The notes beneath the pieces were generated by a model that saw nothing but the letters and a program-made list of their open reading frames with translations, made no database searches and was not told where the DNA came from. Positions 7,254 through 58,753 of a DNA stretch of 64,000 nucleotides are shown piece by piece. Where the stretch lies: the NCBI RefSeq assembly GCF_964213995.1, contig NC_135808.1, positions 24,490,001 to 24,554,000 on the forward strand, in the 5' to 3' direction. Numbering within the stretch: the first letter of the stretch is position 1; each line of letters begins with the position of its first letter. A program made the translations under genes and the position numbers. This stretch comes from Mustelus asterias. Its lineage: Eukaryota.

Positions 7254-10200
7254 TGTTTGATGATCAGCTTACTATTTGTAGGATTGTAGTCGTTCTTCCC
7301 TCTCCCTGTAAAACATGGAATGTTCAGTGAGTGACGAGACTGAGAGAAAATCAGAGACAGAGGCTGGAACTCTCGCTCGCACTGAGCCCCGACAACACAA
7401 TTCTGAAATCCTCACTCTCAGCCTGACCGGGACCCTCACTCCCACCCTGACCCTGGACCCTCACTCTGACCTGAGCCCCTCACAGATATCCTGAACTCCA
7501 TCCGCAATCTGAGACCCTTCCCACAATTCTCAGACACTCTCCCTTTATCTTGAGCCCCTTATCCTCCCTATCCCAACCCTGGGGCTCTTCCACCCACTCT
7601 GTGACCCCCCCCACACCAACCTGAGACCCACAGCCTGAGCCACCCCCACCCTGGAATACTCTCCCACAATCCCTCCCCCCAGTGAGGAGCTGCTATTTTC
7701 CCTCCAATTCCTACCTTTCTTGTTGTAGATGACAACAGCCACAATGATGAGAGCGATGAGCACGAGGACCCCGACCACAATCCCGACAGTAAGAGCAACC
7801 TGGGAGCGAGACTTTGGTTCTGTTAGAGAGAGAGAATCAGAGAGACTGAGTGAATCAGGGAGAGGGAAAAGTGAGAATCAGAGTGAGAGAATGGGAGAGA
7901 GTGGGAGAGAATGAGAGAGAGAGAGAGAGGGCTAGCATCTAAGAGTGAATGAGGGAGTGAATGAGAGATAGAAAAAGGTCAGAGAGTGAGAATGAGAGAG
8001 TGAATCAGGGAGAAAGAAAGAGAAATGTAAGAGTGAGAATGAGAGAGGAAGAAAGAGAAATGAGAGAGTGAATCAGAGGGAGAGAGTGAATCAGGAAACA
8101 CAGGATATACGACACAGAAACCGGCCATTCGACCCATCCAGTTGATCGTGGTGTTAATGTTCTACTTGAGCCTCCTCCCATCTTTTTTTCTCATCTAATT
8201 CGACCATTTCAACTCTATTCCCCTCTCCCTCATTTGCTTGTCTATCCTCCCCTTAAACTATACTGTTCAGTTCAGCCACTCCCTGTGGCAGCGAGCTCCA
8301 CATTCTCATCACTCTTTGGGTGAAGAGGTTTCTCATAAATTCCCCATTGGGTTTCTTGTATTGATGGCCACTGGATATGCTCTTCCCACAAGAGGAACAC
8401 TCTCGATGTGTCCGCTCGATAAAAAACCTTTCATAATTTTAAACTCCTCGATTAAATCAACCCTCAGCCTTCTGTTTTCCCGAGAGCAGAGACCCAGCCA
8501 GTCAATCCTTTCCTGAGATGTCCACCCACTTATTTCTGGAATCATCTCTGTAAATCTTCTCTCCACTCTCTCCCCTGACTCTATATCCTTTGTGTGAAAT
8601 GGTGACCGGAACTGCACACGGTCTTTAAATGTGGTCTAACCAAGGTTTGGCAATAACGTCCCTGCTTTACAATTCTATTCCTCGAGAAATCAAACCTGGT
8701 TTTCGATTGTATTTTGTTTATTGTCTAACCTGTAACTCTATGTTTACTGATTGGTGTATTTGTCCATCAAGATCCCTTTGTTCCTCAACCCTCCCTATTC
8801 ATCGTTAACTGAAAAATACCTCACGTTTATCTGTGCTGAACTTTATTCACCAACTATTTGCTGAAGTTTATTCATGTCCTATTAATTTATTCCAGTTCTC
8901 CTCAAAATCAAATAATTCCCCCAATTTGGTGTTAGCTGCAAATTAAGAAATTGTATTTTTGATTCCAATATCCAAGTTATGGAGTGTAAGTTGTGAATAG
9001 CAGTGATCCCAACACTGATCCTTGTGGAATGATGGAGGAACCCAGCACATCAGTGCAAAAGATAAAGCCGAAGTATTCACAGCAATCTTCAGCCTGAAGT
9101 GCCGAGTGGATGATCCATCTCGGCCTCCTCCAGTGGTCCCCAGCATCTCAGATACCAGTCTCCAGATCATTCGATTCACTTCACGTGATATCAAGAAACG
9201 GTTGGAGGCACTGGATACTGCAAAGGCAATGGGCCCTGATAACATTCCACCAATAGCATTGAAGACTTGTGCTCCACAACTTGCCGACCCCCAAGCCAAG
9301 CTCTTCCAGTACAGTTACAACACTGGCATCTACCCAACAATGTGGAAAATTGCCCAGGTTATGCCCTGTACACAAAAAGCAGGACAAATCCAACCCGGCC
9401 AATTACCGCCCAATCAGTCTACTATCAATCACCAGTAAAGTGATGGAAGGGGTCATCGACAGTGCTATCATGCAGCACCTGCTCAGCGACGCCCAGTTTA
9501 GGTTTTGCCAGGGTCACTCAGCTCCTGACCTCATTGCAGCCTTGGTTCAAACATGGACAAAAGAGCTGAATTCCAGAGGTGAGGTGAGAGTGACAGCCCT
9601 TGACATCCAGGCCAAATTTGACCGAGTGTGGATCAAGGAGCCCTAGCAAAACTGGAATCAGTGGGTATCAAGGGGCAAACTCTCCGCTGGTTGGAGTCAG
9701 ACCTGGTACATAGGAAGATGGTTGTGGTTGTGGAGGGTCAGTCACCTCAGCTCCACGACATCTCTGCAGGAGTCCCTCAGGTAGTGTCCTCGGCCCAATA
9801 ATCTTCAGCTGCTTCATCAATGACCTTCCCTCCATCAATAGGTCGGAAGTGGGGATGTTCGCCGATGATCGCACAATGTTCAGCACCATTCACGATTCCT
9901 CAGATACCGAAGCAGTCCATGTTCAAATGCAGCAAGATCTGGACAATATCCAGGCTTGGGCTGACAAGTGGCAAATAACATTCGTGATGGAATACTCCCC
10001 TCTTGCCTGGATGGGTGCAGCTCCAACAACACTCAAGAAGCTCGACACCATCCAGGACAAAGCAGCCCGCTTGATTGGCACCACATCTATAAATATTCAA
10101 TCTGTCTCCCACCGACGCTCAGTAGCAGCAGTGTGTACTATCTACAAGATGCACTGCAGCAATTCACTGATGATCCTGAGACAGCACCTTCCAAACACAC

Positions 10201-13200
10201 GATCACTTCCATCTAGAAGGACAAGGACAGCAGATAAATGGGAACACCACCACCTGCAAGTTCCCCTCCAAGCCACTCACCATCCTGACTTGCAAATATA
10301 TCACCGTTCCTTCGAGGTCACTGGGTCAAAATACTAGAATTCCCTCCCTAACAGCATTGTCACCACCACCTTCTCAAGGGCAACGAGGCATGGGCAATAA
10401 ATGCTGGTCAGCCAGCGACACCCATGTCCCACGAATGAATTAAAAAAAACACATTTTCCACTTTCTGTCACTCCGAATAACTCCCTTTACTTACACTCTC
10501 TGCTTTCTGTCCAAAAGTCAGTGAGTGATCCATTCTGTCACTCATCCCCTAACTCCACATGCTTTGACCTTGTCAATCAGTCCATCACGAACACCCTTTT
10601 CTATTACATTTGAAAAATTATATGATATTATATCTATTACATTACCATTGTCTATTCCCTCTGTTACATCCTCAATTGTGTGCAGTTCTGGTCACCTGGA
10701 TGTGGAAGCGCTGGAAAGAGTGCAGAGGAGATTTACCAGGATGCTGCCTGGTTTGGAGGGTAGATCTTATGAGGAAAGGTTGAGGGAGCTAGGGCTGTTC
10801 TCTCTGGAGCGGAGGAGGCTGAGGGGAGACTTAATAGAGGTTTATAAAATGATGAAGGGGATAGATAGAGTGAACGTTCAAAGACTATTTCCTCGGGTGG
10901 ATGGAGCTATTACAAGGGGGCATAACTATAGGGTTCGTGGTGGGAGATATAGGAAGGATATCAGAGGTAGGTTCTTTACGCAGAGTGGTTGGGGTGTGGA
11001 ATGGACTGCCTGCAGTGATAATGGAGTCAGACACTTTAGGAACATTTAAGCAGTTATTGGATAGGCATATGGAGCACACCAGGATGATAGGGAGTGGGAT
11101 AGCTTGATCTTGGTTTCAGATAAAGCTCGACACAACATCGTGGGCCAAGGGCCTGTTCTGTGCTGTACTGTTCTATGTTCTAAAAATCCACTTAGTGGAG
11201 TAAAACAAGATTTTCCATTTCAAAATCCATGCTGAATATTCATTGTTATAGGATTTGATTCTAGATTTTCATGAAATGTCTTTAATAGAAGGAATTCCAT
11301 TATTTTTCTGAATATTGATCTTAATCTTACTGACATAAACTCCCAGGATGCACTGGGTCCTGTCCTACTGTAATATTTGATTTATTGTCACATGTATTGG
11401 TGTACAGTGAAAAGTATTGTTTCTTGGAGATACTGGGCCCTGTCTATCCTCTATCCAAGTGGAGAGGATCTCCAAGAAGATCGCGCATATCGACACAAAC
11501 ATCAAGTTTCTACAAACATGCAAGAAAGCAGACAAGATACCGAAAGGACTACGGATCACGAACCCACTCAGGTCAACCTTTAACACGGACTACGCTGAGA
11601 GACTGTGCCATCGCACCTCTCTCACCCTCCTCAAACACCTCATACACCAACTCTACAGCAAACGCCACAGCCTGGAAACCAAGATCGAATCCATAGTCTC
11701 AACTTGCGCTCAGGACGCAGACCAGCTGCGAAACTCTGCCAAGCAGACGAGACAAAGGAACTACACCATCTACATGCACACCAAGAACAGGAAACTTGAG
11801 AAACTCGGCATCACCACCAGCAGCAACCAAGCCTCCCCCGGTACCACAGTAGAAAACAGTACCACTGCAGGAAAGTCCATTGTCAACCCATCGGACTACA
11901 CACTTCAGCCAGATGAAATCGAAGTTCTCAGCCGAGGGCTCAACTTTTGCCCCACTACCAAAATAGACCCCATCAGTCTCGCAGCGGACACAGAGGAATT
12001 CATCAGGCGAATGAGGCTGCGGGAGTTCTTCCACAAACCCCAAGAGGCCAACAGCAAACACAATGAGACAGCTAATGAACCGGAACAGCAGACAGAGAGA
12101 CCCGCAGTGCAACCGAAGAGGAAAGAGTCGAATTGGACTCCTCCGGAAGGCCGCTGCCCTCGACTTGACATGTATGCCCAAGCCATCAGGAGGTGCGTCA
12201 ACACCAAATTCATCAGCCGCACTCACAAGACAGCACCGAACATCACCCAAGCACAACGCAACGCCATCCACGCTCTCAAGACCAACCGCAACATTGTCAT
12301 CAAACCAGCAGACAAAGGAGGGGCCATCATCATACTGAACAGAACGGATTACTGCAAAGAAGTGTACCGACAACTGAACAACGAGGAACACAACAGACAG
12401 TTACCCACAGATCCGACCAAAGAACACACCCGTCAACTCAACACTCTGATCAAAACCTTTGATCCAGACCTTCAGAGCACCCTCCGTGCTCTCATCCCAC
12501 GTACTCCACACGTTGGAGATCTCTACTGCCTCCCAAAAATACACAAGGCAAACACACCCGGCCGTCCCATCGTTTCAGGAAACGGAACCCTGTGCGAGAA
12601 CCTCTCCGGCTATGTCGAGGGCATCTTGAAACCCATTGTACAAAGAACCCCCAGCTTTTGTCGTGACACTATGGACTTCCTACAGAAACTCAACACACAT
12701 GGAGCAGTTGAACCAGGAGCACTCCTCGTCACAATGGATGTCTCGGCACTCTACACCAGCATCCCCCACGATGATGGCATTGCTGCAACGGCCTCAGAAC
12801 TCAATGCCGTCAACTGCCAGTTTCCAGATGCAATTTTACAACTCATCCGCTTCATCCTGGATCACAATATCTTCACCTTCAACAACCAGTTCTTCATCCA
12901 GACACACGGAACAGCCATGGGACAAAATTCGCACCTCAATATGCCAACATCTTCATGCACAGGTTCGAACAAGACTTCTTCACTGCACAGGACATTCAAC
13001 CGATGCTATACACTAGATACATCGATGACATTTTCTTCCTTTGGAGTCATGGTGAGCAATCACTGAAACAACTATATGATGACATCAACAAGTTCCATCC
13101 CACCATCAGACTCACCATGGACTACTCTCCGGAATCGGTTGCATTCTTGGACACACGCATCTCCATTAAGGACGGTCACCTCAGCACCTCACTGTACCGC

Positions 13201-16200
13201 AAGCCCACGGATAACCTCACGATGCTCCACTTCTCCAGCTTCCACCCGAAACACGTAAAAGAAGCCATCCCCTACGGACAAGCCCTCCGAATACACAGGA
13301 TCTGCTCGGACGAGGAGGATCGCAACAGACACCTCCAGACGCTGAAAGATGCCCTCATAAGAACAGGATATGGCGCTCGACTCATCGATCAACAGTTCCG
13401 ACACGCCACAGCAAAAAACCGCACCGACCTCCTCAGAAGACAAACACGGGACACGGTGGACAGAGTACCCTTCGTCGTCCAGTACTTCCCCAGAGCGGAG
13501 AAGCTACGGCATCTCCTCCGGAGCCTTCAACATGTCATTGATGAAGACGAACATCTCGCCAAGGCCATCCCCACACCCCCACTTCTTGCCTTCAAACAAC
13601 CACGCAACCTCAAACAGACCGTTGTCCGCAGCAAACTACCCAGCCTTCAGGAGAACAGTGACCACGTCACCACACAACCCTGCCACAGCAACCTCTGCAA
13701 GACGTGCCGGATGATCAACATGGATGCCATCATCCCACGTGAGAACACCATCTACCAGGTACACGGTACCTACTCTTGCAACTTGGCCAACGTTGTCTAT
13801 CTGATACGCTGCAAGAAAGGATGTCCCGAGGCATGGTACATTGGGGAAACGATGCAGACGCTACGACAACGGATGAATGAACACCGCTCGACAATCACCA
13901 GGCAAGACTGTTCTCTTCCTGTGGGGGAGCACTTCAGCAGTCACGGGCATTCAGCCTTGGATCTTCAGGTAAGCGTTCTCCAAGGCGGCCTTCACGACAC
14001 ACGACAGCGCAGAGTCGCTGAGCAGAAACTGATAGCCAAGTTCCGCACACATGAGGACGGCCTAAACCGGGATGTTGGATTTATGTCACATTATCAGTAA
14101 CCCCCACAGCTTGCCTCCTGGACTTGCAGAATTTCACAAGCTGTTCTGTCTGGAGACAATACACATCTCTTTAACCTGTGTTGAATGCTCCCTCCACCCA
14201 CATTGTCTGTACATTTAAGACCTGGCTGGCTGTAGAGATTTGCATTCTAATCAGTATTCTGTATATTGATTTCTGTGTCTGTGCTCTGTTTGAGAACAGA
14301 TATCTACTCCATCTGACGAAGGAGCTCTGCTCCGAAAGCTTATGGTATTTGCTACCAAATAAACCTGTTGGACTTTAACCTGGTGTTGTGAGACTTCTTA
14401 CTGTGCTTATCCTCTAATATCCCAGGCACACCATGCCCTTCCTCCTGTAACATCCCAGGATACACCAGGCCCTGTCTACCCTCTAATATCCCAGGCACAC
14501 TGGGCCCTACCTCCTGTAATATCCTATGTTACCCTGGGTCATCGCATACAGTAATATCCCAGGATACACCAGGCCCTGTAAGGCTGCAATATCTCAGGAT
14601 ACACTAGGATTTGTCCTTTTATAATATCCCAGGATACACTGCATTCTGTATTACTGCAGTATCCCAGGATACACTCGGTCCTGTCAGGCTGCAATATCCC
14701 ACATACACTGGGCCCCACCATACTGTAATATCCCAGAACACTCCAGGTCCAGATTTACTCTAATGTCCAATGATGCACCAGGCCCTGTGCGACTGTAATA
14801 TCCCATGGTACACTATATCATGTCGTACTGTAATATTCCAGGATACACCAGGCCCTGTTATACTGTTCTATCCCAGGATACTCTGGGCTCTGTCATACTG
14901 TAATCCCAGGATACACTGCGACCCGTGCGACAATAATATCCCAAAATGCACTGGGTCTTGTCGTACAATAATATCCCTGGACACACTGGGCTCTGTCATA
15001 CTCTAGTATCCCAATTAAACCAGGCCCTTGTGGACAGTAACATCCGAGGATACACTTGGCCTTGTCCCTACTGTAACATCCCGACTGTAATGGCCCTGAC
15101 CAACTAAAGGACCTCATGATACACAGCACCCTGTCCCACTGTAATGTCCAATAACACAACGGGTCCTGTACTCCCAGTTATTTCCCAGGATGCACCAGGC
15201 CCTGTCATGCTTTAATATCCCAAGGTGCACCCGGCCTTATCCATCCTGTAATATCCCACAAGACACTGGATCCTGTTGCACTGTAATACAGCAGGATACA
15301 GTGGGGTATGTTTCATGTCAAATCCATGGACACACAATTATTTCCCTCTAAAGGTGGTACCATGATATATCACACATTGAAGGTGAATATTTATTTTCCT
15401 CTCTGTATCCCGGGCCTCAGGCTGTCCTGGGCTGACAGCTCAGCACTGACCCTCACTCCTGTGATCCTGGCCTGAGGCTGGGTCCTCTCTAACAGTGAGA
15501 AACAGTCTTACCGTAAATCACCATCAGTGTCTCCTTCATCCCGCTGTGTTCCACCCGACAGGAATACTCGGCCTGGTCCTCTGGATCAAACTCTACCCAT
15601 TTCCGGATCTGGTAGGTGCTGTCGTGATTGGGTAAAATCCCACTGGACAGAGTCTCATCAATCACCACTCCGTCTCTCCACAGATTCACCTCGATGGCTT
15701 GAGGGTAAAACCCGGTGACGGCACAGGACAGCCGGTTAGAATCACCCAGACGGGTAAAGGACACGACGGGGGCAACTGAGAGAGAAAGAAAGAGGAGTCA
15801 GTACAGGAACCTCGAGATAGAGACTCCCGGCATCACCCCCTTCACCGACTCTCACTCCCCCCTCACTCACCGACTCTCACTCCCCCCTCACTCACCGACT
15901 CTCACTCCCCCCTCACTCACCGACTCTCGCTCCCCGACTCTCACTCCCCCCTCACTCCCCGACTCTCACACCCCCCTCACTCACCGACTCTCACTACCCC
16001 CTCACTCACCGACTCTCACTCCCCCCCCCACTCACCGACTCTCACTCCCCCCTCACTCACCGACTCTCACTCCTCCCTCACTCACCGACTCTCAGTCTCC
16101 CCTCACTCACCGACTCTCACTCCCCTCTCACTCACCGACTCTCACTTCCCCCCTCACTCACCGACTCTCACTCCCCCCTCACTCACCGACTCTCACTCCC

Positions 16201-17697
16201 CCCCTCACTCACCGACTCTCACTCCACCCTCACTCACCGACTCTCACTCGCCCCTCACTCACCGACTCTCACCCTCCCTCACTCACCGACTCTCACTCCC
16301 CCTCTCACTCACCGACTCTCACTCCCCCCTCACTCACCGACTCTCACTCCCCCCTCACTCACCGACTCTCACTCCCCCCTCACTCACCGACTCTCACTCC
16401 CCCCTCACTCACCGACTCTCACTCCCCCCTCACTCACCGACTCTCACTCCCCCCTCACTCACCGACTCTCACTACCCCCCTCACTCACCGACTCTCACTA
16501 CCCCCCTCACTCACCGACTCTCACTACCCCCCTCACTCACCGACTCTCAATTCTCTCTGTCCGTACTCCAGGTATTTTCTCAGCCACTCGATACACTCCA
16601 CCTCCAGGTAATGTTTCAATCGCTGAATGTGTCCAGTCTGCCGGTCGCACCTGTTTTTGATGCTCTCCCCCCAGGGCACTGGGGTCACCCACACCATGTG
16701 CTCCTTGTCCAAACTGAGAACGTCATGTCCGTCCCACCCGTACTGGCTGAATCCACTCGTGGTCCCATCATCCCGCAGGTCACAGCCAGTCATCATCTGG
16801 CAGACATGGACCCCTGTGGATCAGAAACACAAACAGCCAATCAGAGACAGTCCCAATGGGCGATCCCACCTGTACAGCCAATCAGAACGTGTCTCACTGG
16901 GCGATCTCATCCCACCAGCCAATCAACATCAACTACACCCCCCCCTCCCCCCCCACTCCGCTCACACACAGCCAATCAGAGCCAGCTCCCTGGACACAAT
17001 CCCTCCACACATTCACAGCCAATCACATTTCCTGTCACATCTCCAATCGCAGCCAATCAACCTCTGGCTCCCAGTCCCTAATCCACTCTGGGTTTCTCCT
17101 CATTCCCACCTGGATCCCCGGGTGCTGGGAGAGTGAGCACTCACCTACTGTCTGGTTGGTGTGGGACATGTAGAGCGGAATATCAGCTTTCAAATACATC
17201 TCCTGCTCCTCTGTGAAGATCTTCTTCCGCTCCCAGGCTGCCGGACCCTCGCTCTCCACCATCCACTGCTCCCGGGGGATCAGCTCCCTCCGATCGCTGT
17301 CGTACATCACAAACTGGACACCGTCCACATAAACGACAGCCACAAACTCCGGGAAATCCGGGATCAAAGTCATTCCCGTGAAGAAATACCGCAGAGAGTG
17401 AGAGCCTGAAATACAGAGAGAGAGAATTCAGGAAATACACCCTAAAAACACCAACACCCTCACACACACACACAGAGAGATCAGGGCATGAACCCCAAAA
17501 CACTGATTCCAAACTGAGAGCAAGACCTCCACCCAGCCTGGCATTGCCCCTCTCACACCCCATCACTCACTGACCCAGGGTTAATGCCCCAGTACCCAGC
17601 CTGGCATTGCCCCTCTCACACCCCATCACTCACCTGCAGACACCTCTCCACACAGAAGGACCAGCTCTATCAGTCCAATCATTGCTGCTTCCCTCAT
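7034..17697 (-). CDS. MHC class I alpha chain, non-classical-like, copy A. Spliced CDS join(complement 17634-17682 [or 17697], 17145-17405, 16541-16813, 15512-15775, 7715-7819, 7273-7305, 7034-7080)
   Basis: Leader MIGLIELVLLCGEVSA; a1 GSHSLRYFFTGM...NQT; a2 with the C..C pair and YLEVECIEWLRKYL; a3 C1-set Ig domain (LSCAVTGFYP...YSCRVEHSG); TM; Tyr/Ser-rich tail. All junctions are GT-AG phase 1 and the spliced frame is open (1032 nt). Confidence 0.93.
7273..7305 (-). CDS. MHC class I copy A exon 6 (cytoplasmic, 33 nt)
   Basis: Acceptor ttttacag, GRGKNDYNPTN, donor gtaagc. It has the size and Tyr typical of class I exon 6. Confidence 0.85.
7715..7819 (-). CDS. MHC class I copy A exon 5 (connecting peptide and transmembrane)
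   Basis: Acceptor ctaacag after a long CT tract; EPKSRSQVALTVGIVVGVLVLIALIIVAVVIYNKK; donor gtagga. Confidence 0.9.
8100..9020 (-). mobile_element. Old CR1 LINE 3' fragment in intron 4 (paralog ~40640-41560)
   Basis: ERVERRFTEMIPEI...LGLCSRENRRLRVDLIEEFKIMKG. Confidence 0.75.
9025..10449 (+). mobile_element. Non-LTR retrotransposon (CR1/L2-group LINE) 3' portion, frameshifted and internally deleted, copy A
   Basis: KAMGPDNIP, NYRPISLLS, ALDIQAKFDRVW, GVPQGS, MFADD motifs; ends aatgaattaaaaaaa. Confidence 0.85.
10676..11182 (+). mobile_element. CR1 LINE 3' end (paralog 43218-43724)
   Basis: LERVQRRFTRMLPGL...LGLFSLERRRLRGDLIEVYK...TRGH C-terminus and a ctatgttcta tail. Confidence 0.9.
11454..14407 (+). 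mobile_element. Penelope-like retroelement (RT + GIY-YIG endonuclease), 5'-truncated with one frameshift, in MHC intron 4, copy A
   Basis: ORFs 11417-13066 and 12955-14100 carry KPADKGG, LPKIHK-GRPIVS, MDVSALYTSI, GTAMG|KFAPQYANIFM (frameshift ~12922), YTRYIDDIF, and VYLIRC..C...YIGET...QRMNEH (GIY-YIG). 3' terminal repeat 14101-14407. Flanked by the direct repeat tatcctcta (11445-11453 and 14408-14416). Confidence 0.95.
14309..14345 (+). ncRNA. Minimal type I hammerhead ribozyme in the Penelope 3' terminal repeat, copy A
   Basis: CCAT-CTGACGA-A-GGAGC-tct-GCTCC-GAAA-GCTT-ATGG: stem I ccat/atgg, core CUGANGA and GAAA, stem II ggagc/gctcc, palindromic AAGCTT in place of stem III. Confidence 0.88.
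14417..15330. repeat. Degenerate ~35-bp tandem repeat; begins at ~11335-11453 and is split by Penelope (paralog 46960-47870)
   Basis: Recurrent taatatcccaggatacac(t/c)(g/a)ggccctgt. Confidence 0.9.
15512..15775 (-). CDS. MHC class I copy A exon 4 (alpha-3, C1-set Ig domain)
   Basis: Acceptor ctctcag, 264 nt, VAPVVSF...LSCAVTGFYPQAIEVNLW...LPNHDSTYQ...YSCRVEHSG, donor gtaaga. Confidence 0.96.
15841..16548. repeat. 25-bp tandem repeat filling MHC intron 3, ~28 units, copy A
   Basis: Unit ctcactcaccgactctcactccccc; it overlaps the last bases of exon 3. Confidence 0.97.
16541..16813 (-). CDS. MHC class I copy A exon 3 (alpha-2 domain)
   Basis: Acceptor ccacag, 273 nt, GVHVCQMMTGCDLRDDG...WDGHD...YLEVECIEWLRKYLEYGQRELRV, donor gtgagt. 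Confidence 0.96.
17145..17405 (-). CDS. MHC class I copy A exon 2 (alpha-1 domain)
   Basis: Acceptor tatttcag, 261 nt, GSHSLRYFFTGMTLIPDFPEFVAVVYVDGVQFVMYDSD...MSHTNQTV, donor gtgagt. Confidence 0.96.
17634..17697 (-). CDS. MHC class I copy A exon 1 (leader); ATG at 17682, in-frame upstream ATG at 17697
   Basis: (MREAA)MIGLIELVLLCGEVSA-G followed by the donor gtgagt, downstream of the X-Y promoter module. Confidence 0.85.
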
Positions 17698-22789: not shown

Positions 22790-25700
22790 CTCAGTGTGTG
22801 AGCTGTGTCCTGTATTAATACTGTCCCTCTCAGTGTGTGAGCTGTGTCCTGTATTAATACTGTCCCTGTCAGTCTGTGAGCTGTGTCCTGTACTGATACT
22901 GTCCCTCTCAGTGTGTGAGCTGTGTCCTGTACTGATAATGTCCCTCTCAGTGTGTGAGCTGTGTCCTGTATTGATACTGTCCCTCTCAGCGTGTGAGCTG
23001 TGTCCTGTACTGATACTGTCCCTCTCAGTGTGTGAGCTGTGTCCTGTACTGATACTGTCCCTCTCAGTGTGTGAGCTGTGTCCTGTATTGATACTGTCCC
23101 TCTCAGCGTGTGAGCTGTGTCCTGTACTGATACTGTCCCTCTCAGTCTGTGAGCTGTGTCCTGTACTGATACTGTCCCTCTCAGTGTGTGAGCTGTGTCC
23201 TGTACTGATACTGTCCCTCTCAGCGTGTGAGCTGTGTCCTGTACTGATACTGTCCCTCTCAGCGTGTGAGCTGTGTCCTGTACTGATACTGTCCCTCTCA
23301 GCGTGTGAGCTGTGTCCTGTACTGATACTGTCCCTCTCAGTGTGTGAGCTGTGTCCTGTACTGATACTGTCCCTCTCAGTCTGTGAGCTGTGTCCTGTAC
23401 TGATACTGTCCCTCTCAGTGTGTGAGCTGTGTCCTGTACCTGATACTGTCCCTCTCAGTCTGTGAGCTGTGTCCTGTACTGATACTGTCCCTCTCAGTGT
23501 GTGAGCTGTGTCCTGTACCTGATACTGTCCCTCTCAGTCTGTGAGCTGTGTCCTGTACTGATACTGTCCCTCTCAGTGTGTGAGCTGTGTCCTGTACTGA
23601 TACTGTCTCTCTCAGTGTGTGAGCTGTGTCCTGTACTGATACTGTCCCTCTCAGCATGTGAGCTGTGTCCTGTACTGATCCTGTCCCTCTCAGTGTGTGA
23701 GCTGTGTCCTGTACTGATACTGTCCCTCTCAGTGTGTGAGCTGTGTCCTGTACTGATACTGTCCCTCTCAGTCTGTGAGCTGTGTCCTGTACTGATACTG
23801 TCCCTCTCAGTGTGTGAGCTGTGTCCTGTACCTGATACTGTCCCTCTCAGTCTGTGAGCTGTGTCCTGTACTGATACTGTCCCTCTCAGTCTGTGAGCTG
23901 TGTCTTGTACTGATACTGTCCCTCTCAGTGTGTGAGCTGTGTCCTGGACCTGATGGTGTCCCTCTCAGCGTGTGAGCTGTGTCCTGTACTGATACTGTCC
24001 CTCTCAGCGTGTGAGCTGTGTCCTGTACTGATACTGTCCCTCTCAGTCTGTGAGCTGTGTCTTGTACTGATACTGTCCCTCTCAGTGTGTGAGCTGTGTC
24101 TTGTACTGATACTGTCCCTCTCAGCGTGTGAGCTGTGTCTTGTACTGATACTGTCCCTCTCAGTGTGTGAGCTGTGTCTTGTACTGATACTGTCCCTCTC
24201 AGTCTGTGAGCTGTGTCCTGTACTGATACTGTCCCTCTCAGTGTGTGAGCTGTGTCTTGTACTGATACTGTCCCTCTCAGTGTGTGAGCTGTGTCCTGTA
24301 CTGATACTGTCCCTCTCAGCGTGTGAGCTGTGTCCTGTACTGATACTGTCCCTCTCAGCGTGTGAGCTGTGTCCTGTACTGATACTGTCCCTCTCAGCGT
24401 GTGAGCTGTGTCCTGTACTGATACTGTCCCTCTCAGTCTGTGAGCTGTGTCCTGTACTGATACTGTCCCTCTCAGCGTGTGAGCTGTGTCCTGTACTGAT
24501 ACTGTCCCTCTCAGCGTGTGAGCTGTGTCCTGTACTGATACTGTCCCTCTCAGTCTGAGCTGTGTCCTGTACTGATACTGTCCCTCTCAGTCTGTGAGCT
24601 GTGTCCTGTACTGATACTGTCCCTCTCAGTGTGTGAGCTGTGTCTTGTACCTGATACTGTCCCTCTCAGTCTGTGAGCTGTGTCCTGTACTGATACTGTC
24701 CCTCTCAGTGTGTGAGCTGTGTCTTGTACTGATACTGTCCCTCTCAGTGTGTGAGCTGTGTCCTGTATTAATACTGTCCCTCTCAGTGTGTGAGCTGTGT
24801 CCTGTATTAATACTGTCCCTCTCAGTGTGTGAGCTGTGTCTTGTACTGATACTGTCCCTCTCAGTGTGTGAGCTGTGTCCTGTACTGATACTGTCCCTCT
24901 CAGTGTGTGAGCTGTGTCCTGTACTGATACTGTCCCTCTCAGTGTGTGAGCTGTGTCCTGTACTGATACTGTCCCTCTCAGTGTGTGAGCTGTGTCCTGT
25001 AATGATACTGTCCCTCTCAGTCTGTGAGCTGTGTCTTGTACTGATACTGTCCCTCTCAGTCTGTGAGCTGTGTCCTGTACTGATATTGTCCCTCTCAGTG
25101 TGTGAGCTGTGTCTTGTACTGATACTGTCCCTCTCAGTGTGTGAGCTGTGTCTTGTACTGATACTGTCCCTCTCAGTGTGTGAGCTGTGTCCTGTACTGA
25201 TACTGTCCCTCTCAGTGTGTGAGCTGTGTCCTGTATTAATACTGTCCCTCTCAGTGTGTGAGCTGTGTCCTGTATTGATACTGTCCCTCTCAGTGTGTGA
25301 GCTGTGTCTTGTACTGATACTGTCCCTCTCAGTGTGTGAGCTGTGTCCTGTACTGATACTGTCCCTCTCAGTGTGTGAGCTGTGTCTTGTACTGATACTG
25401 TCCCTCTCAGCGTGTGAGCTGTGTCCTGTACTGATACTGTCCCTCTCAGTGTGTGAGCTGTGTCTTGTACTGATACTGTCCCTCTCAGTGTGTGAGCTGT
25501 GTCCTGTACTGATACTGTCCCTCTCAGTGTGTGAGCTGTGTCTTGTACTGATACTGTCCCTCTCAGTGTGTGAGCTGTGTCCTGTACTGATACTGTCCCT
25601 CTCAGTCCAAGAGCTGTGTCCTGTATTAATACTGTCCCTCTCAGTGTGTGAGCTGTGTCCTGTACTGATACTGTCCCTCTCAGTCTGTGAGCTGTGTCCT

Positions 25701-26025
25701 GTACTGATACTGTCCCTCTCAGTGTGTGAGCTGTGTCCTGTACCTGATGGTGTCCCTCTCAGCGTGTGAGCTGTGTCCTGTACCTGATACTGTCCCTCTC
25801 AGTCTGTGAGCTGTGTCCTGTACTGATACTGTCCCTCTCAGTGTGTGAGCTGTGTCCTGTACTGATACAGTCCCTCTCAGTGTGTGAGCTGTGTCCTGTA
25901 CCTGATGGTGTCCCTCTCAGCGTGTGAGCTGTGTCCTGTACCTGATGGTGTCCCTCTCAGTGTGTGAGCTGTGTCCTGTACCTGATACTGTCCCTCTCAG
26001 TGTATGAGCTCTGTGCTGTACTTGA
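22790..26025. repeat. 39-bp tandem satellite, ~83 units, copy A
   Basis: Unit ctcagtgtgtgagctgtgtcctgtactgatactgtccct. Confidence 0.98.
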
Positions 26026-45400: not shown

Positions 45401-48400
45401 TGGATCACAATATCTTCACCTTCAACAACCAGTTCTTCATCCAGACACACGGAACAGCCATGGGACAAAATTCGCACCTCAATATGCCAACATCTTCATG
45501 CACAGGTTCGAACAAGACTTCTTCACTGCACAGGACATTCAACCGATGCTATACACTAGATACATCGATGACATTTTCTTCCTTTGGAGTCATGGTGAGC
45601 AATCACTGAAACAACTATATGATGACATCAACAAGTTCCATCCCACCATCAGACTCACCATGGACTACTCTCCGGAATCGGTTGCATTCTTGGACACACG
45701 CATCTCCATTAAGGACGGTCACCTCAGCACCTCACTGTACCGCAAGCCCACGGATAACCTCACGATGCTCCACTTCTCCAGCTTCCACCCGAAACACGTA
45801 AAAGAAGCCATCCCCTACGGACAAGCCCTCCGAATACACAGGATCTGCTCGGACGAGGAGGATCGCAACAGACACCTCCAGACGCTGAAAGATGCCCTCA
45901 TAAGAACAGGATATGGCGCTCGACTCATCGATCAACAGTTCCGATGCGCCACAGCAAAAAACCGCACCGACCTCCTCAGAAGACAAACACGGGACACGGT
46001 GGACAGAGTACCCTTCGTCGTCCAGTACTTCCCCAGAGCGGAGAAGCTACGGCATCTCCTCCGGAGCCTTCAACATGTCATTGATGAAGACGAACATCTC
46101 GCCAAGGCCATCCCCACACCCCCACTTCTTGCCTTCAAACAACCACGCAACCTCAAACAGACCGTTGTCCGCAGCAAACTACCCAGCCTTCAGGAGAACA
46201 GTGACCACGTCACCACACAACCCTGCCACAGCAACCTCTGCAAGACGTGCCGGATGATCAACATGGATGCCATCATCCCACGTGAGAACACCATCTACCA
46301 GGTACACGGTACCTACTCTTGCAACTTGGCCAACGTTGTCTATCTGATACGCTGCAAGAAAGGATGTCCCGAGGCATGGTACATTGGGGAAACGATGCAG
46401 ACGCTACGACAACGGATGAATGAACACCGCTCGACAATCACCAGGCAAGACTGTTCTCTTCCTGTGGGGGAGCACTTCAGCAGTCACGGGCATTCAGCCT
46501 TGGATCTTCAGGTAAGCGTTCTCCAAGGCGGCCTTCACGACACACGACAGCGCAGAGTCGCTGAGCAGAAACTGATAGCCAAGTTCCGCACACATGAGGA
46601 CGGCCTAAACCGGGATGTTGGATTTATGTCACATTATCAGTAACCCCCACAGCTTGCCTCCTGGACTTGCAGAATTTCACAAGCTGTTCTGTCTGGAGAC
46701 AATACACATCTCTTTAACCTGTGTTGAATGCTCCCTCCACCCACATTGTCTGTACATTTAAGACCTGGCTGGCTGTAGAGATTTGCATTCTAATCAGTAT
46801 TCTGTAAATTGATTTCTGTGTCTGTGCTCTGTTTGAGAACAGATATCCACTCCATCTGACGAAGGAGCTCTGCTCCGAAAGCTTATGGTATTTGCTACCA
46901 AATAAACCTGTTGGACTTTAACCTGGTGTTGTGAGACTTCTTACTGTGCTTATCCTCTAAAATCCCAGGCACACCATGCCCTTCCTCCTGTAACATCCCA
47001 GGATACACCAGGCCCTGTCTACCCTCTAATATCCCAGGCACACTGGGCCCTACCTCCTGTAATATCCTATGTTACCCTGGGTCATCGCATACAGTAATAT
47101 CCCAGGATACACCAGGCCCTGTAAGGCTGCAATATCTCAGGATACACTAGGATTTGTCCTTTTATAATATCCCAGGATACACTGCATTCTGTATTACTGC
47201 AGTATCCCAGGATACACGAGGTCCTGTCAGGCTGCAATATCCCAGATATACTGGGCCCCACCATACTGTAATATCCCAGAACACCCCAGGTCCAGATTTA
47301 CTCTAATGTCCAATGATGCACCAGGCCCTGTGCGACTGTAATATCCCATGGTACACTATATCATGTCGTACTGTAATATTCCAGGATACACCAGGCCCTG
47401 TTATACTGTTCTATCCCAGGATACTCTGGGCTCTGTCATACTGTAATCCCAGGATACACTGCGACCCGTGCGACAATAATATCCCAAAATGCACTGGGTC
47501 TTGTCGTACAATAATATCCCTGGACACACTGGGCTAGTATACTCTAGTATCCCAATTAAACCAGGCCCTTGTGGACAGTAACATCCGAGGATACACTTGG
47601 CCTTGTCCCTACTGTAACATCCCGACTGTAATGGCCCTGACCAACTAAAGGACCTCATGATACACAGCACCCTGTCCCACTGTAATGTCCAATAACACAA
47701 CGGGTCCTGTACTCCCAGTTATTTCCCAGGATGCACCAGGCCCTGTCATGCTTTAATATCCCAAGGTACACCCGGCCTTATCCATCCTGTAATATCCCAG
47801 AAGACACTGGATCCAGTTGCACTATAATACGGCAGGATACAGTGGGGTATGTTTCATGTCAAATCCATGGACACACAATTATTTCCCTCTAAAGGTGGTA
47901 CCATGATATATCACACATTGAAGGTGAATATTTATTTTCCTCTCTGTATCCCGGGCCTCAGGCTGTCCTGGGCTGACAGCTCAGCACTGACCCTCACTCC
48001 TGTGATCCTGGCCTGAGGCTGGGTCCTCTCTAACAGTGAGAAACAGTCTTACCGTAAATCACCATCAGTGTCTCCTTCATCCCGCTGTGTTCCACCCGAC
48101 AGGAATACTCGGCCTGGTCCTCTGGATCAAACTCTACCCATTTCCGGATCTGGTAGGTGCTGTCGTGATTGGGTAAAATCCCACTGGACAGAGTCTCATC
48201 AATCACCACTCCGTCTCTCCACAGATTCACCTCGATGGCTTGAGGGTAAAACCCGGTGACGGCACAGGACAGCCGGTTAGAATCACCCAGACGGGTAAAG
48301 GACACGACGGGGGCAACTGAGAGAGAAAGAAAAAGGAGTCAGTACAGGAACGTCGAGATAGAGACTCCCGGCATCACCCCCTTCACCGACTCTCACTCCC

Positions 48401-50269
48401 CCCTAACTCACCGACTCTCACTCCCCCCTCACTCACCGACTCTCACTCCCCCCTCACTCACCGACTCTCGCTCCCCGACTCTCACTCCCCCCTCACTCCC
48501 CGACTCTCACTCCCCCCTCACTCACCGACTCTCACTACCCCCTCACTCACCGACTCTCACTCCCCCCCCCCACTCACCGACTCTCACTCCCCCCTCACTC
48601 ACCGACTCTCACTCCTCCCTCACTCACCGACTCTCAGTCTCCCCTCACTCACCGACTCTCACTCCCCTCTCACTCACCGACTCTCACTTCCCCCCTCACT
48701 CACCGACTCTCATTCCCCCCTCACTCACCGACTCTCACTCCCCCCCTCACTCACCGACTCTCACTCCACCCTCACTCACCGACTCTCACTCGCCCCTCAC
48801 TCACCGACTCTCACCCCCCCTCACTCACTGACTCTCACTCCCCCTCTCACTCACCGACTCTCACTCCCCCCTCACTTACCGACTCTCACTCCCCCCTCAC
48901 TCACCGACTCTCACTCCCCCCTCACTCACCGACTCTCACTCCCCCCTCACTCACCGACTCTCACTCCCCCCTCACTCACCGACTCTCACTCCCCCCTCAC
49001 TCACCGACTCTCACTACCCCCCTCACTCACCGACTCTCACTACCCCCCTCACTCACCGACTCTCACTACCCCCCTCACTCACCGACTCTCACTACCCCCC
49101 TCACTCACCGACTCTCAATTCTCTCTGTCCGTACTCCAGGTATTTTCTCAGCCACTCGATACACTCCACCTCCAGGTAATGTTTCAATCGCTGAATGTGT
49201 CCAGTCTGCCGGTCGCACCTGTTTTTGATGCTCTCCCCCCAGGGCACTGGGGTCACCCACACCATGTGCTCCTTGTCCAAACTGAGAACGTCATGTCCGT
49301 CCCACCCGTACTGGCTGAATCCACTCGTGGTCCCATCATCCCGCAGGTCACAGCCAGTCATCATCTGGCAGACATGGACCCCTGTGGATCAGAAACACAA
49401 ACAGCCAATCAGAGACAGTCCCAATGGGCGATCCCACCTGTACAGCCAATCAGAACGTGTCTCACTGGGCGATCTCATCCCACCAGCCAATCAACATCAA
49501 CTACACCCCCCCCCCTCCCCCCCCACTCCGCTCACACACAGCCAATCAGAGCCAGCTCCCTGGACACAATCCCTCCACACATTCACAGCCAATCACATTT
49601 CCTGTCACATCTCCAATCGCAGCCAATCAACCTCTGGCTCCCAGTCCCTAATCCACTCTGGGTTTCTCCTCATTCCCACCTGGATCCCCGGGTGCTGGGA
49701 GAGTGAGCACTCACCTACTGTCTGGTTGGTGTGGGACATGTAGAGCGGAATATCAGCTTTCAAATACATCTCCTGCTCCTCTGTGAAGATCTTCTTCCGC
49801 TCCCAGGCTGCCGGACCCTCGCTCTCCACCATCCACTGCTCCCGGGGGATCAGCTCCCTCCGATCGCTGTCGTACATCACAAACTGGACACCGTCCACAT
49901 AAACGACAGCCACAAACTCCGGGAAATCCGGGATCAAAGTCATTCCCGTGAAGAAATACCGCAGAGAGTGAGAGCCTGAAATACAGAGAGAGAGAATTCA
50001 GGAAATACACCCTAAAAACACCAACACCCTCACACACACACACACAGAGAGATCAGGGCATGAACCCCAAAACACTGATTCCAAACTGAGAGCAAGACCT
50101 CCACCCAGCCTGGCATTGCCCCTCTCACACCCCATCACTCACTGACCCAGGGTTAATGCCCCAGTACCCAGCCTGGCATTGCCCCTCTCACACCCCATCA
50201 CTCACCTGCAGACACCTCTCCACACAGAAGGACCAGCTCTATCAGTCCAATCATTGCTGCTTCCCTCAT
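39409..50269 (-). CDS. MHC class I alpha chain, non-classical-like, copy B. Spliced CDS join(complement 50206-50254 [or 50269], 49715-49975, 49109-49381, 48053-48316, 40304-40408, 39643-39675, 39409-39455)
   Basis: Same exon structure and splice sites as copy A. Leader and a1-a3 are identical in protein; it differs by L>V near the TM start and S>T in the tail. Confidence 0.93.
39790..40060. repeat. ~24-bp VNTR in MHC intron 5, expanded in copy B (only 2-3 units at ~7420-7480 in copy A)
   Basis: Unit ccctgaccctggaccctcactccca; copy B has ~220 bp extra. Confidence 0.85.
40304..40408 (-). CDS. MHC class I copy B exon 5 (transmembrane)
   Basis: EPKSRSQVAVTVGIVVGVLVLIALIIVAVVIYNKK with AG/GT borders. 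Confidence 0.9.
41567..42991 (+). mobile_element. Non-LTR retrotransposon 3' portion, copy B
   Basis: Paralog of 9025-10449. Confidence 0.85.
43997..46950 (+). mobile_element. Penelope-like retroelement, copy B
   Basis: ORFs 43960-45609 and 45498-46643, same frameshift and same tatcctcta flanks (43988-43996 and 46951-46959). Confidence 0.95.
46852..46888 (+). ncRNA. Minimal type I hammerhead ribozyme, copy B
   Basis: Identical to 14309-14345. Confidence 0.88.
48053..48316 (-). CDS. MHC class I copy B exon 4 (alpha-3)
   Basis: Same translation as 15512-15775. Confidence 0.96.
48383..49116. repeat. 25-bp tandem repeat filling MHC intron 3, ~29 units, copy B
   Basis: Same unit, about one extra copy. 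Confidence 0.97.
49109..49381 (-). CDS. MHC class I copy B exon 3 (alpha-2)
   Basis: Same translation as 16541-16813. Confidence 0.96.
49715..49975 (-). CDS. MHC class I copy B exon 2 (alpha-1)
   Basis: Same translation as 17145-17405. Confidence 0.96.
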
Positions 50270-55361: not shown

Positions 55362-58300
55362 CTCAGTGTGTGAGCTGTGTCCTGTATTAATACTGTCCCT
55401 CTCAGTGTGTGAGCTGTGTCCTGTATTAATACTGTCCCTGTCAGTCTGTGAGCTGTGTCCTGTACTGATACTGTCCCTCTCAGTGTGTGAGCTGTGTCCT
55501 GTACTGATACTGTCCCTCTCAGTGTGTGAGCTGTGTCCTGTATTGATACTGTCCCTCTCAGCGTGTGAGCTGTGTCCTGTACTGATACTGTCCCTCTCAG
55601 TGTGTGAGCTGTGTCCTGTACTGATACTGTCCCTCTCAGTGTGTGAGCTGTGTCCTGTATTGATACTGTCCCTCTCAGCGTGTGAGCTGTGTCCTGTACT
55701 GATACTGTCTCTCTCAGTCTGTGAGCTGTGTCCTGTACTGATACTGTCCCTCTCAGTGTGTGAGCTGTGTCCTGTACTGATACTGTCCCTCTCAGCGTGT
55801 GAGCTGTGTCCTGTACTGATACTGTCCCTGTCAGTCTGTGAGCTGTGTCCTGTACTGATACTGTCCCTCTCAGTGTGTGAGCTGTGTCCTGTACTGATAC
55901 TGTCCCTCTCAGTGTGTGAGCTGTGTCCTGTACTGATACTGTCCCTCTCAGTGTGTGAGCTGTGTCCTGTACTGATACTGTCCCTCTCAGTGTGTGAGCT
56001 GTGTCCTGTACTGATACTGTCCCTCTCAGTGTGTGAGCTGTGTCCTGTACCTGATACTGTCCCTCTCAGTCTGTGAGCTGTGTCCTGTACTGATACTGTC
56101 CCTCTCAGTGTGTGAGCTGTGTCCTGTACCTGATACTGTCCCTCTCAGTCTGTGAGCTGTGTCCTGTACTGATACTGTCCCTCTCAGTCTGTGAGCTGTG
56201 TCCTGTACTGATACTGTCCCTCTCAGTGTGTGAGCTGTGTCCTGTACTGATACTGTCTCTCTCAGTGTGTGAGCTGTGTCCTGTACTGATACTGTCCCTC
56301 TCAGCATGTGAGCTGTGTCCTGTACTGATCCTGTCCCTCTCAGTGTGTGAGCTGTGTCCTGTACTGATACTGTCCCTCTCAGTGTGTGAGCTGTGTCCTG
56401 TACTGATACTGTCCCTCTCAGTCTGTGAGCTGTGTCCTGTACTGATACTGTCCCTCTCAGTGTGTGAGCTGTGTCCTGTACCTGATACTGTCCCTCTCAG
56501 TCTGTGAGCTGTGTCCTGTACTGATACTGTCCCTCTCAGTCTGTGAGCTGTGTCTTGTACTGATACTGTCCCTCTCAGAGTGAGCTGTGTCTTGTACTGA
56601 TACTGTCCCTCTCAGTGTGTGAGCTGTGTCTTGTACTGATACTGTCCCTCTCAGAGTGTCTGTACTGATACTGTCTTCAGTGTGTGAGCTGTGTCTTGTC
56701 AGCGTGTGAGCTTGTGTCTTGTTACTGATACTGTCCCTCTCAGTGTGTGAGCTGTGGTCTTGTACTGATACTGTCCCTCTCAGTGTGTCTTGTACTGATA
56801 CTGTCCCTCTCAGTGTGTGAGCTGTGTCTTGTACTGATACTGTCCCTCTCAGTCTGTGAGCTGTGTCCTGTACTGATACTGTCCCTCTCAGCGTGTGAGC
56901 TGTGTCCTGTACTGATACTGTCCCTCTCAGCGTGTGAGCTGTGTCCTGTACTGATACTGTCCCTCTCAGCGTGTGAGCTGTGTCCTGTACTGATACTGTC
57001 CCTCTCAGTCTGTGAGCTGTGTCCTGTACTGATACTGTCCCTCTCAGCGTGTGAGCTGTGTCCTGTACTGATACTGTCCCTCTCAGTGTGTGAGCTGTGT
57101 CCTGTACTGATACTGTCCCTCTCAGTCTGAGCTGTGTCCTGTACTGATACTGTCCCTCTCAGTCTGTGAGCTGTGTCCTGTACTGATACTGTCCCTCTCA
57201 GTGTGTGAGCTGTGTCTTGTACCTGATACTGTCCCTCTCAGTCTGTGAGCTGTGTCCTGTACTGATACTGTCCCTCTCAGTGTGTGAGCTGTGTCTTGTA
57301 CTGATACTGTCCCTCTCAGTGTGTGAGCTGTGTCCTGTATTAATACTGTCCCTCTCAGTGTGTGAGCTGTGTCCTGTATTAATACTGTCCCTCTCAGTGT
57401 GTGAGCTGTGTCTTGTACTGATACTGTCCCTCTCAGTGTGTGAGCTGTGTCCTGTACTGATACTGTCCCTCTCAGTGTGTGAGCTGTGTCCTGTACTGAT
57501 ACTGTCCCTCTCAGTGTGTGAGCTGTGTCCTGTACTGATACTGTCCCTCTCAGTGTGTGAGCTGTGTCCTGTAATGATACTGTCCCTCTCAGTCTGTGAG
57601 CTGTGTCTTGTACTGATACTGTCCCTCTCAGTCTGTGAGCTGTGTCCTGTATTAATACTGTCCCTCTCAGTGTGTGAGCTGTGTCCTGTATTAATACTGT
57701 CCCTCTCAGTGTGTGAGCTGTGTCTTGTACTGATACTGTCCCTCTCAGTGTGTGAGCTGTGTCCTGTACTGATACTGTCCCTCTCAGTGTGTGAGCTGTG
57801 TCCTGTACTGATACTGTCCCTCTCAGTGTGTGAGCTGTGTCCTGTACTGATACTGTCCCTCTCAGTGTGTGAGCTGTGTCCTGTAATGATACTGTCCCTC
57901 TCAGTCTGTGAGCTGTGTCTTGTACTGATACTGTCCCTCTCAGTCTGTGAGCTGTGTCCTGTACTGATATTGTCCCTCTCAGTGTGTGAGCTGTGTCTTG
58001 TATTGATACTGTCCCTCTCAGTGTGTGAGCTGTGTCTTGTACTGATACTGTCCCTCTCAGTGTGTGAGCTGTGTCCTGTACTGATACTGTCCCTCTCAGT
58101 GTGTGAGCTGTGTCCTGTATTAATACTGTCCCTCTCAGTGTGTGAGCTGTGTCCTGCACTGATACTGTCCCTCTCAGTGTGTGAGCTGTGTCTTGTACTG
58201 ATACTGTCCCTCTCAGTGTGTGAGCTGTGTCCTGTACTGATACTGTCCCTCTCAGTGTGTGAGCTGTGTCTTGTACTGATACTGTCCCTCTCAGTGTGTG

Positions 58301-58753
58301 AGCTGTGTCCTGTACTGATACTGTCCCTCTCAGTCCAAGAGCTGTGTCCTGTATTAATACTGTCCCTCTCAGTGTGTGAGCTGTGTCCTGTACTGATACT
58401 GTCCCTCTCAGTCTGTGAGCTGTGTCCTGTACTGATACTGTCCCTCTCAGTGTGTGAGCTGTGTCCTGTACCTGATGGTGTCCCTCTCAGCGTGTGAGCT
58501 GTGTCCTGTACCTGATACTGTCCCTCTCAGTCTGTGAGCTGTGTCCTGTACTGATACTGTCCCTCTCAGTGTGTGAGCTGTGTCCTGTACTGATACAGTC
58601 CCTCTCAGTGTGTGAGCTGTGTCCTGTACCTGATGGTGTCCCTCTCAGCGTGTGAGCTGTGTCCTGTACCTGATGGTGTCCCTCTCAGTGTGTGAGCTGT
58701 GTCCTGTACCTGATACTGTCCCTCTCAGTGTATGAGCTCTGTGCTGTACTTGA
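55362..58753. repeat. 39-bp tandem satellite, ~87 units, copy B
   Basis: Same unit; irregular patch at ~56575-56800. Confidence 0.98.

Follow-up and report, generated by a model that had tools for sequence, protein, structure and literature searches.

The window, the whole 64,000-nucleotide stretch of Mustelus asterias DNA that was analysed (NC_135808.1, positions 24,490,001 to 24,554,000), contains two copies of an MHC class I heavy chain gene, both on the reverse strand. In copy 1 the leader, alpha1, alpha2, alpha3, transmembrane and cytoplasmic exons form one open frame of 348 aa. The coding part of exon 1 (leader; 17634..17697) runs in an open frame from the ATG to a GT donor and has the N-terminus of database protein P0003. 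Exon 2 (alpha1; 17145..17405) has AG/GT borders and matches Pfam MHC_I (E 6e-15), as does exon 3 (alpha2; 16541..16813; E 4e-20), and exon 4 (alpha3; 15512..15775) matches C1-set (E 7e-16). The joint of exon 4 with the transmembrane exon 5 (7715..7819) appears as a loose end in an RNA run of a relative (X1), and exons 6 and 7 (7305-7273 and 7080-7034), encoding the cytoplasmic tail, complete the frame with a stop at the end of exon 7 and none before it. The best solved relative is 6LUP. The second copy (exon 3, 49381-49109; intron 3, 792 bp; exon 4, 48316-48053) encodes a protein identical to that of copy 1 from leader to alpha3.

These genes are likely to belong to the shark nonclassical class I family UBA, an assignment from sequence that rests on alpha2, alpha3 and a published alignment. 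In the part of the PMC10751288 supplement alignment used here, which has no UEA row, alpha3 is identical to nurse shark UBA (AAC60347) at 70 of 88 positions, as counted by eye, and to nurse shark UAA (AF220063) at 48 of 88; the UCA, UDA, UFA and UGA references, judged uncounted, are visibly further away than UBA. Horn shark AAC60348 (86% identical in alpha3, 67% in alpha2) we infer to be UBA as well. Furthermore, about 50 close matches lie at 21.6-24.75 Mb of the same chromosome, and most of the other class I matches are at 28-43 Mb. UBA is described as a multicopy cluster that is separate from both the class Ia region and a larger cluster of class Ib genes (PMC10751288, in part), and the M. 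asterias genes share with it both this arrangement and closeness to nurse shark UBA. The same part of that paper makes no mention of UBA intron structure or of the repeat described below.

Intron 3 of copy 1 (16540-15776; 765 bp) is filled, over 91.5% of its length, by a 25-bp minisatellite at 15841..16549 on the reverse strand, comprising 28 units and a truncated one (TRF 15842-16549, period 25, matches 94%, score 1087-1150). Units were counted by splitting at GAGAGTC; the 28 include a first unit that straddles the end of the exon and a partial of 14 bp, and the truncated last unit is extra. Beyond the array lies a unique 3' tail (15776..15840), which holds the pyrimidine tract and the acceptor and diverges by 2-5% between groups of paralogs. 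Exon 3 and the repeat unit have exactly nine bases (TGAGAGTCG) in common before the GT, which make up the unit's 5' half, and the real donor stands at 16540; the array repeats these nine exon bases plus the donor, and the exon-intron junction itself has been amplified, as a first-pass annotation of this DNA had recognized. TCG/GTGAGT occurs at 26 sites, the real donor and 25 decoys. The intron also holds 32 runs of at least three G; a canonical short-loop G-quadruplex motif is absent from it, and seven motifs appear when loops of up to 20 nt are allowed. In the second copy the array (48383..49117, reverse strand; TRF and unit splitting) has 29 units and a truncated one, in agreement with the initial estimate of about 29, and 26 downstream GTRAGT sites, including a single GTAAGT. 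The immediate in-frame stop that had been noted is also present: read-through of the first donor gives V-G-E and then a TGA at 16533..16535 on the reverse strand (16535-16533 in gene direction), after 201 residues. However, the same codon is a stop in two array-less paralogs (L084 and L088), so that the stop was not created by the array.

The repeat is confined to this gene cluster. An exact 42-mer of the array pattern matched 386 times genome-wide, against no match for the reversed 42-mer, which rules out chance; all 386 matches fall inside loci of this gene cluster, and an origin from a dispersed satellite was rejected on that ground. Among paralogs with a resolved intron 3, in a survey of the 78 alpha2 matches less 18, almost all of which belong to distant lineages, 43 of 48 carry 4-113 units and five carry none, the units lying head-to-tail in a number that varies from 0 to 113. 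Unit number had no link to ORF integrity in the 41 genes with alpha1-alpha3 recovered: 29 are intact with 0-113 units and 12 are broken with 0-76 (Mann-Whitney p = 1.0, the rows not being independent). In 47 genes there are 4401 downstream GT[AG]AG sites, and a stop precedes every array site when the frame is followed to it; the three sites that can be reached in frame with no stop all lie in array-less genes. Decoy-spliced RNA is an expected target of nonsense-mediated decay (NMD) by the standard exon-junction rule.

Evidence on donor use comes from assembled RNA contigs of four species related to M. asterias, in which rare forms drop out and NMD would hide decoy products; the RNA runs listed include none from M. 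asterias itself, which says nothing about expression. With the 6-unit paralog L076 as reference, the exon 3-exon 4 joint falls at the first donor in all four runs, from four studies, at depths of 566, 393, 128 and 416 and with a short side of 21-71 letters, which extends beyond the nine shared bases. Run X1 has a second joint, at the first donor as it reads in array-less paralogs, and one 8-letter loose end in that run lies inside the shared nine bases and fits either donor. Among the loose ends listed for these four runs, which are all but 10 rows, there was no decoy joint. Contig matches on the array itself (X1-X4) are short and gapped, with a depth of up to 48 and of about 220 in one X1 stretch, which has a loose end unlike the gene; being short and gapped, the low-depth contigs were dropped as proof of an array in the relatives. 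Runs X18-X20 were set aside as DNA because introns and exons are covered alike.

Ten paralogs, nine of them intact, have a base other than G at -1 of the first donor. With the U1 5' end, this weak first donor pairs at about -6.3 kcal/mol and the decoy 25 nt on at -10.0 to -10.5; the window's own two genes have a first donor no different from their decoys. No weak TCT/GT-type joint was found in any run, so that weak-donor paralogs fall outside the RNA evidence. NCBI models (P0003, P0004), which are predictions rather than reads, use the first donor, the weak-donor type included. Across 898 units, mismatches in the decoy GT amount to 2.8% at +1 and 4.1% at +2, within the range of 0.1-8.7% found elsewhere in the unit (with a peak at CpG), and the decoy GT has thus been neither spared nor purged.

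The array also marks a sharp change in divergence, which we followed in the 32 genes whose exons are full-length, condensed to 18 distinct genes or 13 representatives. Between divergent paralog groups, the final 50 nt of intron 2 differ by 0.13-0.26 and third positions over the final 90 nt of exon 3 by 0.20-0.42, against 0.02-0.04 in the intron 3 tail and 0.02-0.08 at third positions of exon 4; in intron 4, nt 6-85 differ by 0.04-0.13, and by nt 110-210 the difference is back to 0.20-0.31. Exon 4 is thus the core of a homogenised alpha3 cassette whose 5' edge lies at the array and whose other end tapers off some 100 bp inside intron 4. Mean pS of exons 2, 3 and 4 is 0.15, 0.23 and 0.07 (18 distinct genes), and the distance correlation is 0.83 for exon 2 with exon 3 and 0.45 for exon 3 with the cassette. 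Rearrangements break at or in the array (L119, L098-L100), insertions split it (L080, L081, L093, L094, L097), and in L081, L093 and L094 a variant specific to the group occurs in the 5' units and is absent from the 3' ones. However, the tail and exon 4 are equally homogenised (0.02-0.08) in array-less paralogs. The earlier idea of recombination between alpha2 and alpha3 finds indirect support in the steep fall of paralog divergence across the array and in the several rearrangements that break inside it, but alpha3 is just as uniform without one. In a cross-species tree the alpha3 sequences of M. asterias paralogs stand together on one side of a branch with support 86 (not starred), and alpha2 monophyly of these paralogs was not rejected (p-AU 0.61); the cross-species trees neither separate concerted evolution from species-specific expansion nor fix the ancestry of the array-less state.

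A human system offers the closest guide. In the 37-bp VNTR of F7 intron 7, the first donor is used whatever the unit number, and minigenes with 1-12 units, stronger decoys or G-triplet changes left the donor unmoved; perfect-consensus decoys took 70-90% (PMC1557585, in part). We consider it probable that the shark array is likewise a near-neutral, donor-spanning minisatellite, of a single slippage origin and spread by duplication, with the first donor taken. As the spliced RNA observed in related sharks joins at the first donor only, the repeat is likely to be a passive passenger. Array-less paralogs have a second TGAGA about 21 bases past the exonic TGAGA, and a slip between these two words would yield the 25-bp unit; one such event may have been followed by spread with gene duplication. 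The array-less L082 and L088 group with the 7-unit L079 (95/86), so later loss of the array fits equally and the origin may be read in either direction. Unit number would then drift by unequal exchange and the units would mutate like ordinary DNA, while exon definition and first-site selection, to judge from F7, would keep the decoys idle, with NMD clearing any rare decoy products. Less certainly, the near-identical block present in every paralog may serve as a landing zone for exchanges as a side effect, so that the array is where diverse alpha1-alpha2 gives way to uniform alpha3.

A stronger role in exchange, with the array starting or resolving gene conversion and being retained for alpha3 uniformity alongside alpha1-alpha2 diversity, would account for the drop in divergence, the fall in correlation, the breaks and insertions, and the variant confined to 5' units. 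We regard it as unlikely, because array-less paralogs are just as uniform, no such array stands at the 3' edge of the cassette, exon 4 homogenisation is reported for mammalian class I too (PMC1403747, in part), and alpha2 monophyly is not rejected either; moreover, with intron 3 nearly all array, the edge may sit anywhere within it. The decoys might instead act as a rheostat, diverting some transcripts to NMD; paralogs in which the first donor has lost its -1 G would be the most plausible setting. The nine intact weak-donor genes, the stop after every array decoy, the use of the nearest decoys in human 6-16 and CBS, and the success of perfect-consensus decoys in F7 minigenes (PMC1557585, in part) all favour this, but the nine genes reduce to about three distinct types, listed decoy joints number zero in four of four runs of related species, decoy GT conservation is no higher than that of neighbouring positions, and F7 decoys with consensus values of up to 91 lose to a first site of 74 (PMC1557585, in part). 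Such a role is therefore improbable, and the proposal that 28 versus 29 units tune output is not supported: the window's genes have equal first donors and decoys, this difference is trivial beside the 0-113 units of intact paralogs, relatives' contigs show first-donor joints only, and F7 splicing ignored unit number. A combination in which the array is both the switch point of alpha3 gene conversion and an NMD-coupled dimmer of expression in weakened-donor paralogs is similarly doubtful. Very improbable, finally, is a functional secreted alpha1-alpha2 protein from decoy use or read-through, or titration of U1 snRNP or hnRNP H in trans. The 201-residue leader-alpha1-alpha2 frame ending in V-G-E exists on paper and the intron has its G-runs, but the later exon junctions follow a long way downstream of the stop, so that NMD is expected, and the stop occurs without the array too; excised introns persist only briefly and U1 is abundant. 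Thus, of the first-pass suggestion that any downstream donor gives a truncated product, the premature stop stands, and the secreted form was absent among the own-species protein models examined.

Viewed as a near-neutral minisatellite, the array is likely a harmless example of a kind already published in human genes. F7 resembles it in a first unit that spans the exon-intron border, in repeated identical donors, G runs and, to judge from relatives' contigs, first-donor use, but has 5-9 units in one gene, compared with 0-113 units of 25 bp in a family of about 50, in some members of which the first donor is weaker. The minisatellites of human 6-16, CBS intron 13, lamin B2 and PDGF intron 4 share this architecture: 6-16 has 25 decoys, as does shark copy 1, and the lamin B2 repeat also covers most of its intron; however, 6-16 and CBS use their two nearest decoys, and none was seen in use in contigs of the shark's relatives (PMC1557585, in part, including its introduction). 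Mammalian class I exon 4, with its concerted evolution, offers a similar picture of alpha3 homogenised within a species and alpha1-alpha2 diverse, but the part of PMC1403747 considered names no shared minisatellite of the kind that coincides with the 5' edge in the shark. Titles and abstract openings yielded no literature on this shark repeat, with thin coverage of subscription papers, the first studies of shark class I among them. Sister genes by the dozen, with 0 to 113 identical decoys and some with a weakened first donor, form a natural series for first-donor selection that exceeds the scale of the human cases. Furthermore, in a shark class I lineage that has been little studied, the array marks the boundary of a sharply limited cassette of homogenised alpha3, and exon 4 reads and primers are unable to discriminate these paralogs.

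Most of the window is a 32.5-kb tandem duplication whose halves are 96–98% identical, each carrying one minus-strand MHC class I gene. The gene in copy 1 comprises seven coding exons, with an open frame of 348 residues and the Pfam domains MHC_I and C1-set. As the first-pass annotation had described, its intron 3 (16540–15776, minus strand, 765 bp) is largely a donor-spanning array (15841..16549): 91.5% is a 25-bp minisatellite whose unit copies the last nine bases of exon 3 plus the splice donor, in 28 units and a truncated one, with 25 repeated donors, or decoys, reading TCG/GTGAGT. Copy 2 (48383..49117) has one unit more, in agreement with the earlier estimate of 28 against about 29, and the stop reported directly past the first donor is also present (V-G-E-stop, after 201 residues). 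Elsewhere in the window, the start of intron 1 (17633–17532), with the intronic side of its donor, is doubled once with a 63-bp period, so that GTGAGT occurs there a second time. Intron 2, which ranges from 141 to about 370 bp in full-length paralogs, contains CCAAT words within a 41-bp tandem repeat (16832–16925), intron 4 holds ~3 kb of retroelement-like sequence antisense to the gene (about 11440–14400), and a 39-bp satellite of 83–87 units lies upstream of both copies (22790–26022 and 55362–58750).

The alpha2 exon (exon 3) has 78 matches genome-wide, every one on the window's contig, C8, and about 50 are close relatives at 21.6–24.75 Mb. At 22.58–24.75 Mb, near-identical paralog sets return every ~410 kb, which suggests either that large segments were copied recently or that haplotypes were left uncollapsed. 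By eye, in the supplementary alignment of PMC10751288, alpha3 (exon 4) is identical to nurse shark UBA at 70/88 positions and to UAA at 48/88; the window gene is likely a UBA gene, a group that the paper describes as a separate multicopy cluster. We surveyed 62 stretches (60 retrieved loci and the two window genes), many of them segmental copies, the 32 full-length genes collapsing to 18 distinct types. Intron 3 was resolved in 48, of which 43 carry 4–113 units, in introns of up to 6.2 kb, and five are array-less, with introns of 75–83 bp. Of the remaining 14, six are genes of other lineages, in which this array is absent, and four are truncated exons; three orphan alpha2 exons carry four units, and in one stretch an orphan array stands with alpha3. 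All 386 exact genome-wide matches to a 42-base repeat pattern fall within the surveyed loci (reversed control, 0), and thus the unit is native to this intron. Genes without the array retain a second TGAGA ~21 bases past the exonic one, a plausible seed for slippage as the array's origin; later loss fits too, as these genes group with a 7-unit gene.

Immediately to the right of the window lies L100 (G000:C8:24560143-24560412), which, like L098 and L099, is an orphan alpha2 exon with four units; beyond these the sequence jumps to something resembling the 3′ flank of the gene. Such an exon is spliced to the window gene's exon 2 in NCBI models P0001 and P0036, giving alpha2-alpha1-alpha2-alpha3. 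In L119 (1400–3000), an array and an intact-looking alpha3 exon persist, with exon 3 replaced by retroelement sequence and the break at the array start. The class Ia-like L109 and L110 (41.6 and 42.4 Mb of C8) have an unrelated GC-rich variable repeat in intron 3 (about 190 versus 540 bp), in which donors are not repeated, and in L082, L083 and L089 an 8-bp duplication in intron 3 yields two successive donors, the second stronger and out of frame.

The proposal that unit number tunes the output of full-length protein drew no support from the survey, as intact genes (29/41) range from 0 to 113 units and broken ones (12/41) from 0 to 76 (p = 1.0, on non-independent rows). The decoy GT mutates at about the rate of neighbouring bases, with CpG highest, among 898 non-independent units pre-filtered to three or fewer mismatches. 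An in-frame stop precedes every array decoy, and L084 and L088, which have no array, share the stop codon position of the array genes. Against the reading of unit number as irrelevant stand 10 paralogs, nine of them intact, whose first donor lacks the G at −1 and so pairs with U1 more weakly than the next decoy, by about 4 kcal/mol. No joint of this weak-donor type was seen in RNA contigs X1–X4. These contigs, from four studies of four species that are not Mustelus asterias and that may or may not carry the array, were placed on L076, an intact paralog with six units; X18–X20 were set aside as DNA, with introns covered. Depth lay on exons, with little over the intron, and in 4/4 runs exon 3 joined exon 4 at the first donor, the short side of 21–71 letters indicating that the joint marks the true exon 3 end. 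X1 additionally held the joint of the array-less type, likewise at the first donor; two loose ends came from other paralog types, with the end of exon 3 spliced to exon 4, and one 8-letter loose end was ambiguous. Use of downstream donors, as earlier envisaged, was not seen: among the loose ends listed for these other-species contigs, no joint started inside a unit, although contigs drop rare forms and decoy products would be cleared by NMD and hence hidden. NCBI gene models, which are predictions, likewise use the first donor, one weak-donor type included.

Five human genes with a donor-spanning repeat architecture are described in PMC1557585. There, F7 minigenes with 1–12 units used only the most upstream working donor, a choice unchanged by decoys up to consensus value 91 or by altered G triplets and competed for by perfect decoys only; in 6-16 and CBS, the two nearest decoys are also in use. 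Our search, with subscription literature mostly beyond its reach, found no paper on this repeat in shark class I genes. The shark array is real and is a new case of an already known kind of architecture, and we consider it probably a passive passenger.

Between divergent paralog groups, divergence is 0.20–0.42 at third positions of the exon 3 end, 0.02–0.04 in the intron 3 tail and 0.02–0.08 in exon 4, returning to 0.20–0.31 more than ~110 bp into intron 4; as a like-for-like control, intron 2 gives 0.13–0.26 at its 3′ end. This profile points to a putative gene-conversion island around alpha3, with its 5′ edge in intron 3. The array is also a breakpoint of rearrangements and insertions. A causal role of the array in alpha3 homogenisation is only possible: genes lacking an array share the island, no array lies at its 3′ edge, trees across species did not discriminate between concerted evolution and a species-specific expansion, and homogenised exon 4 is already known in mammals (PMC1403747). 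What is unusual here is that such an array spans a whole immune gene family, at 0–113 units, and sits at the edge of a homogenised cassette.
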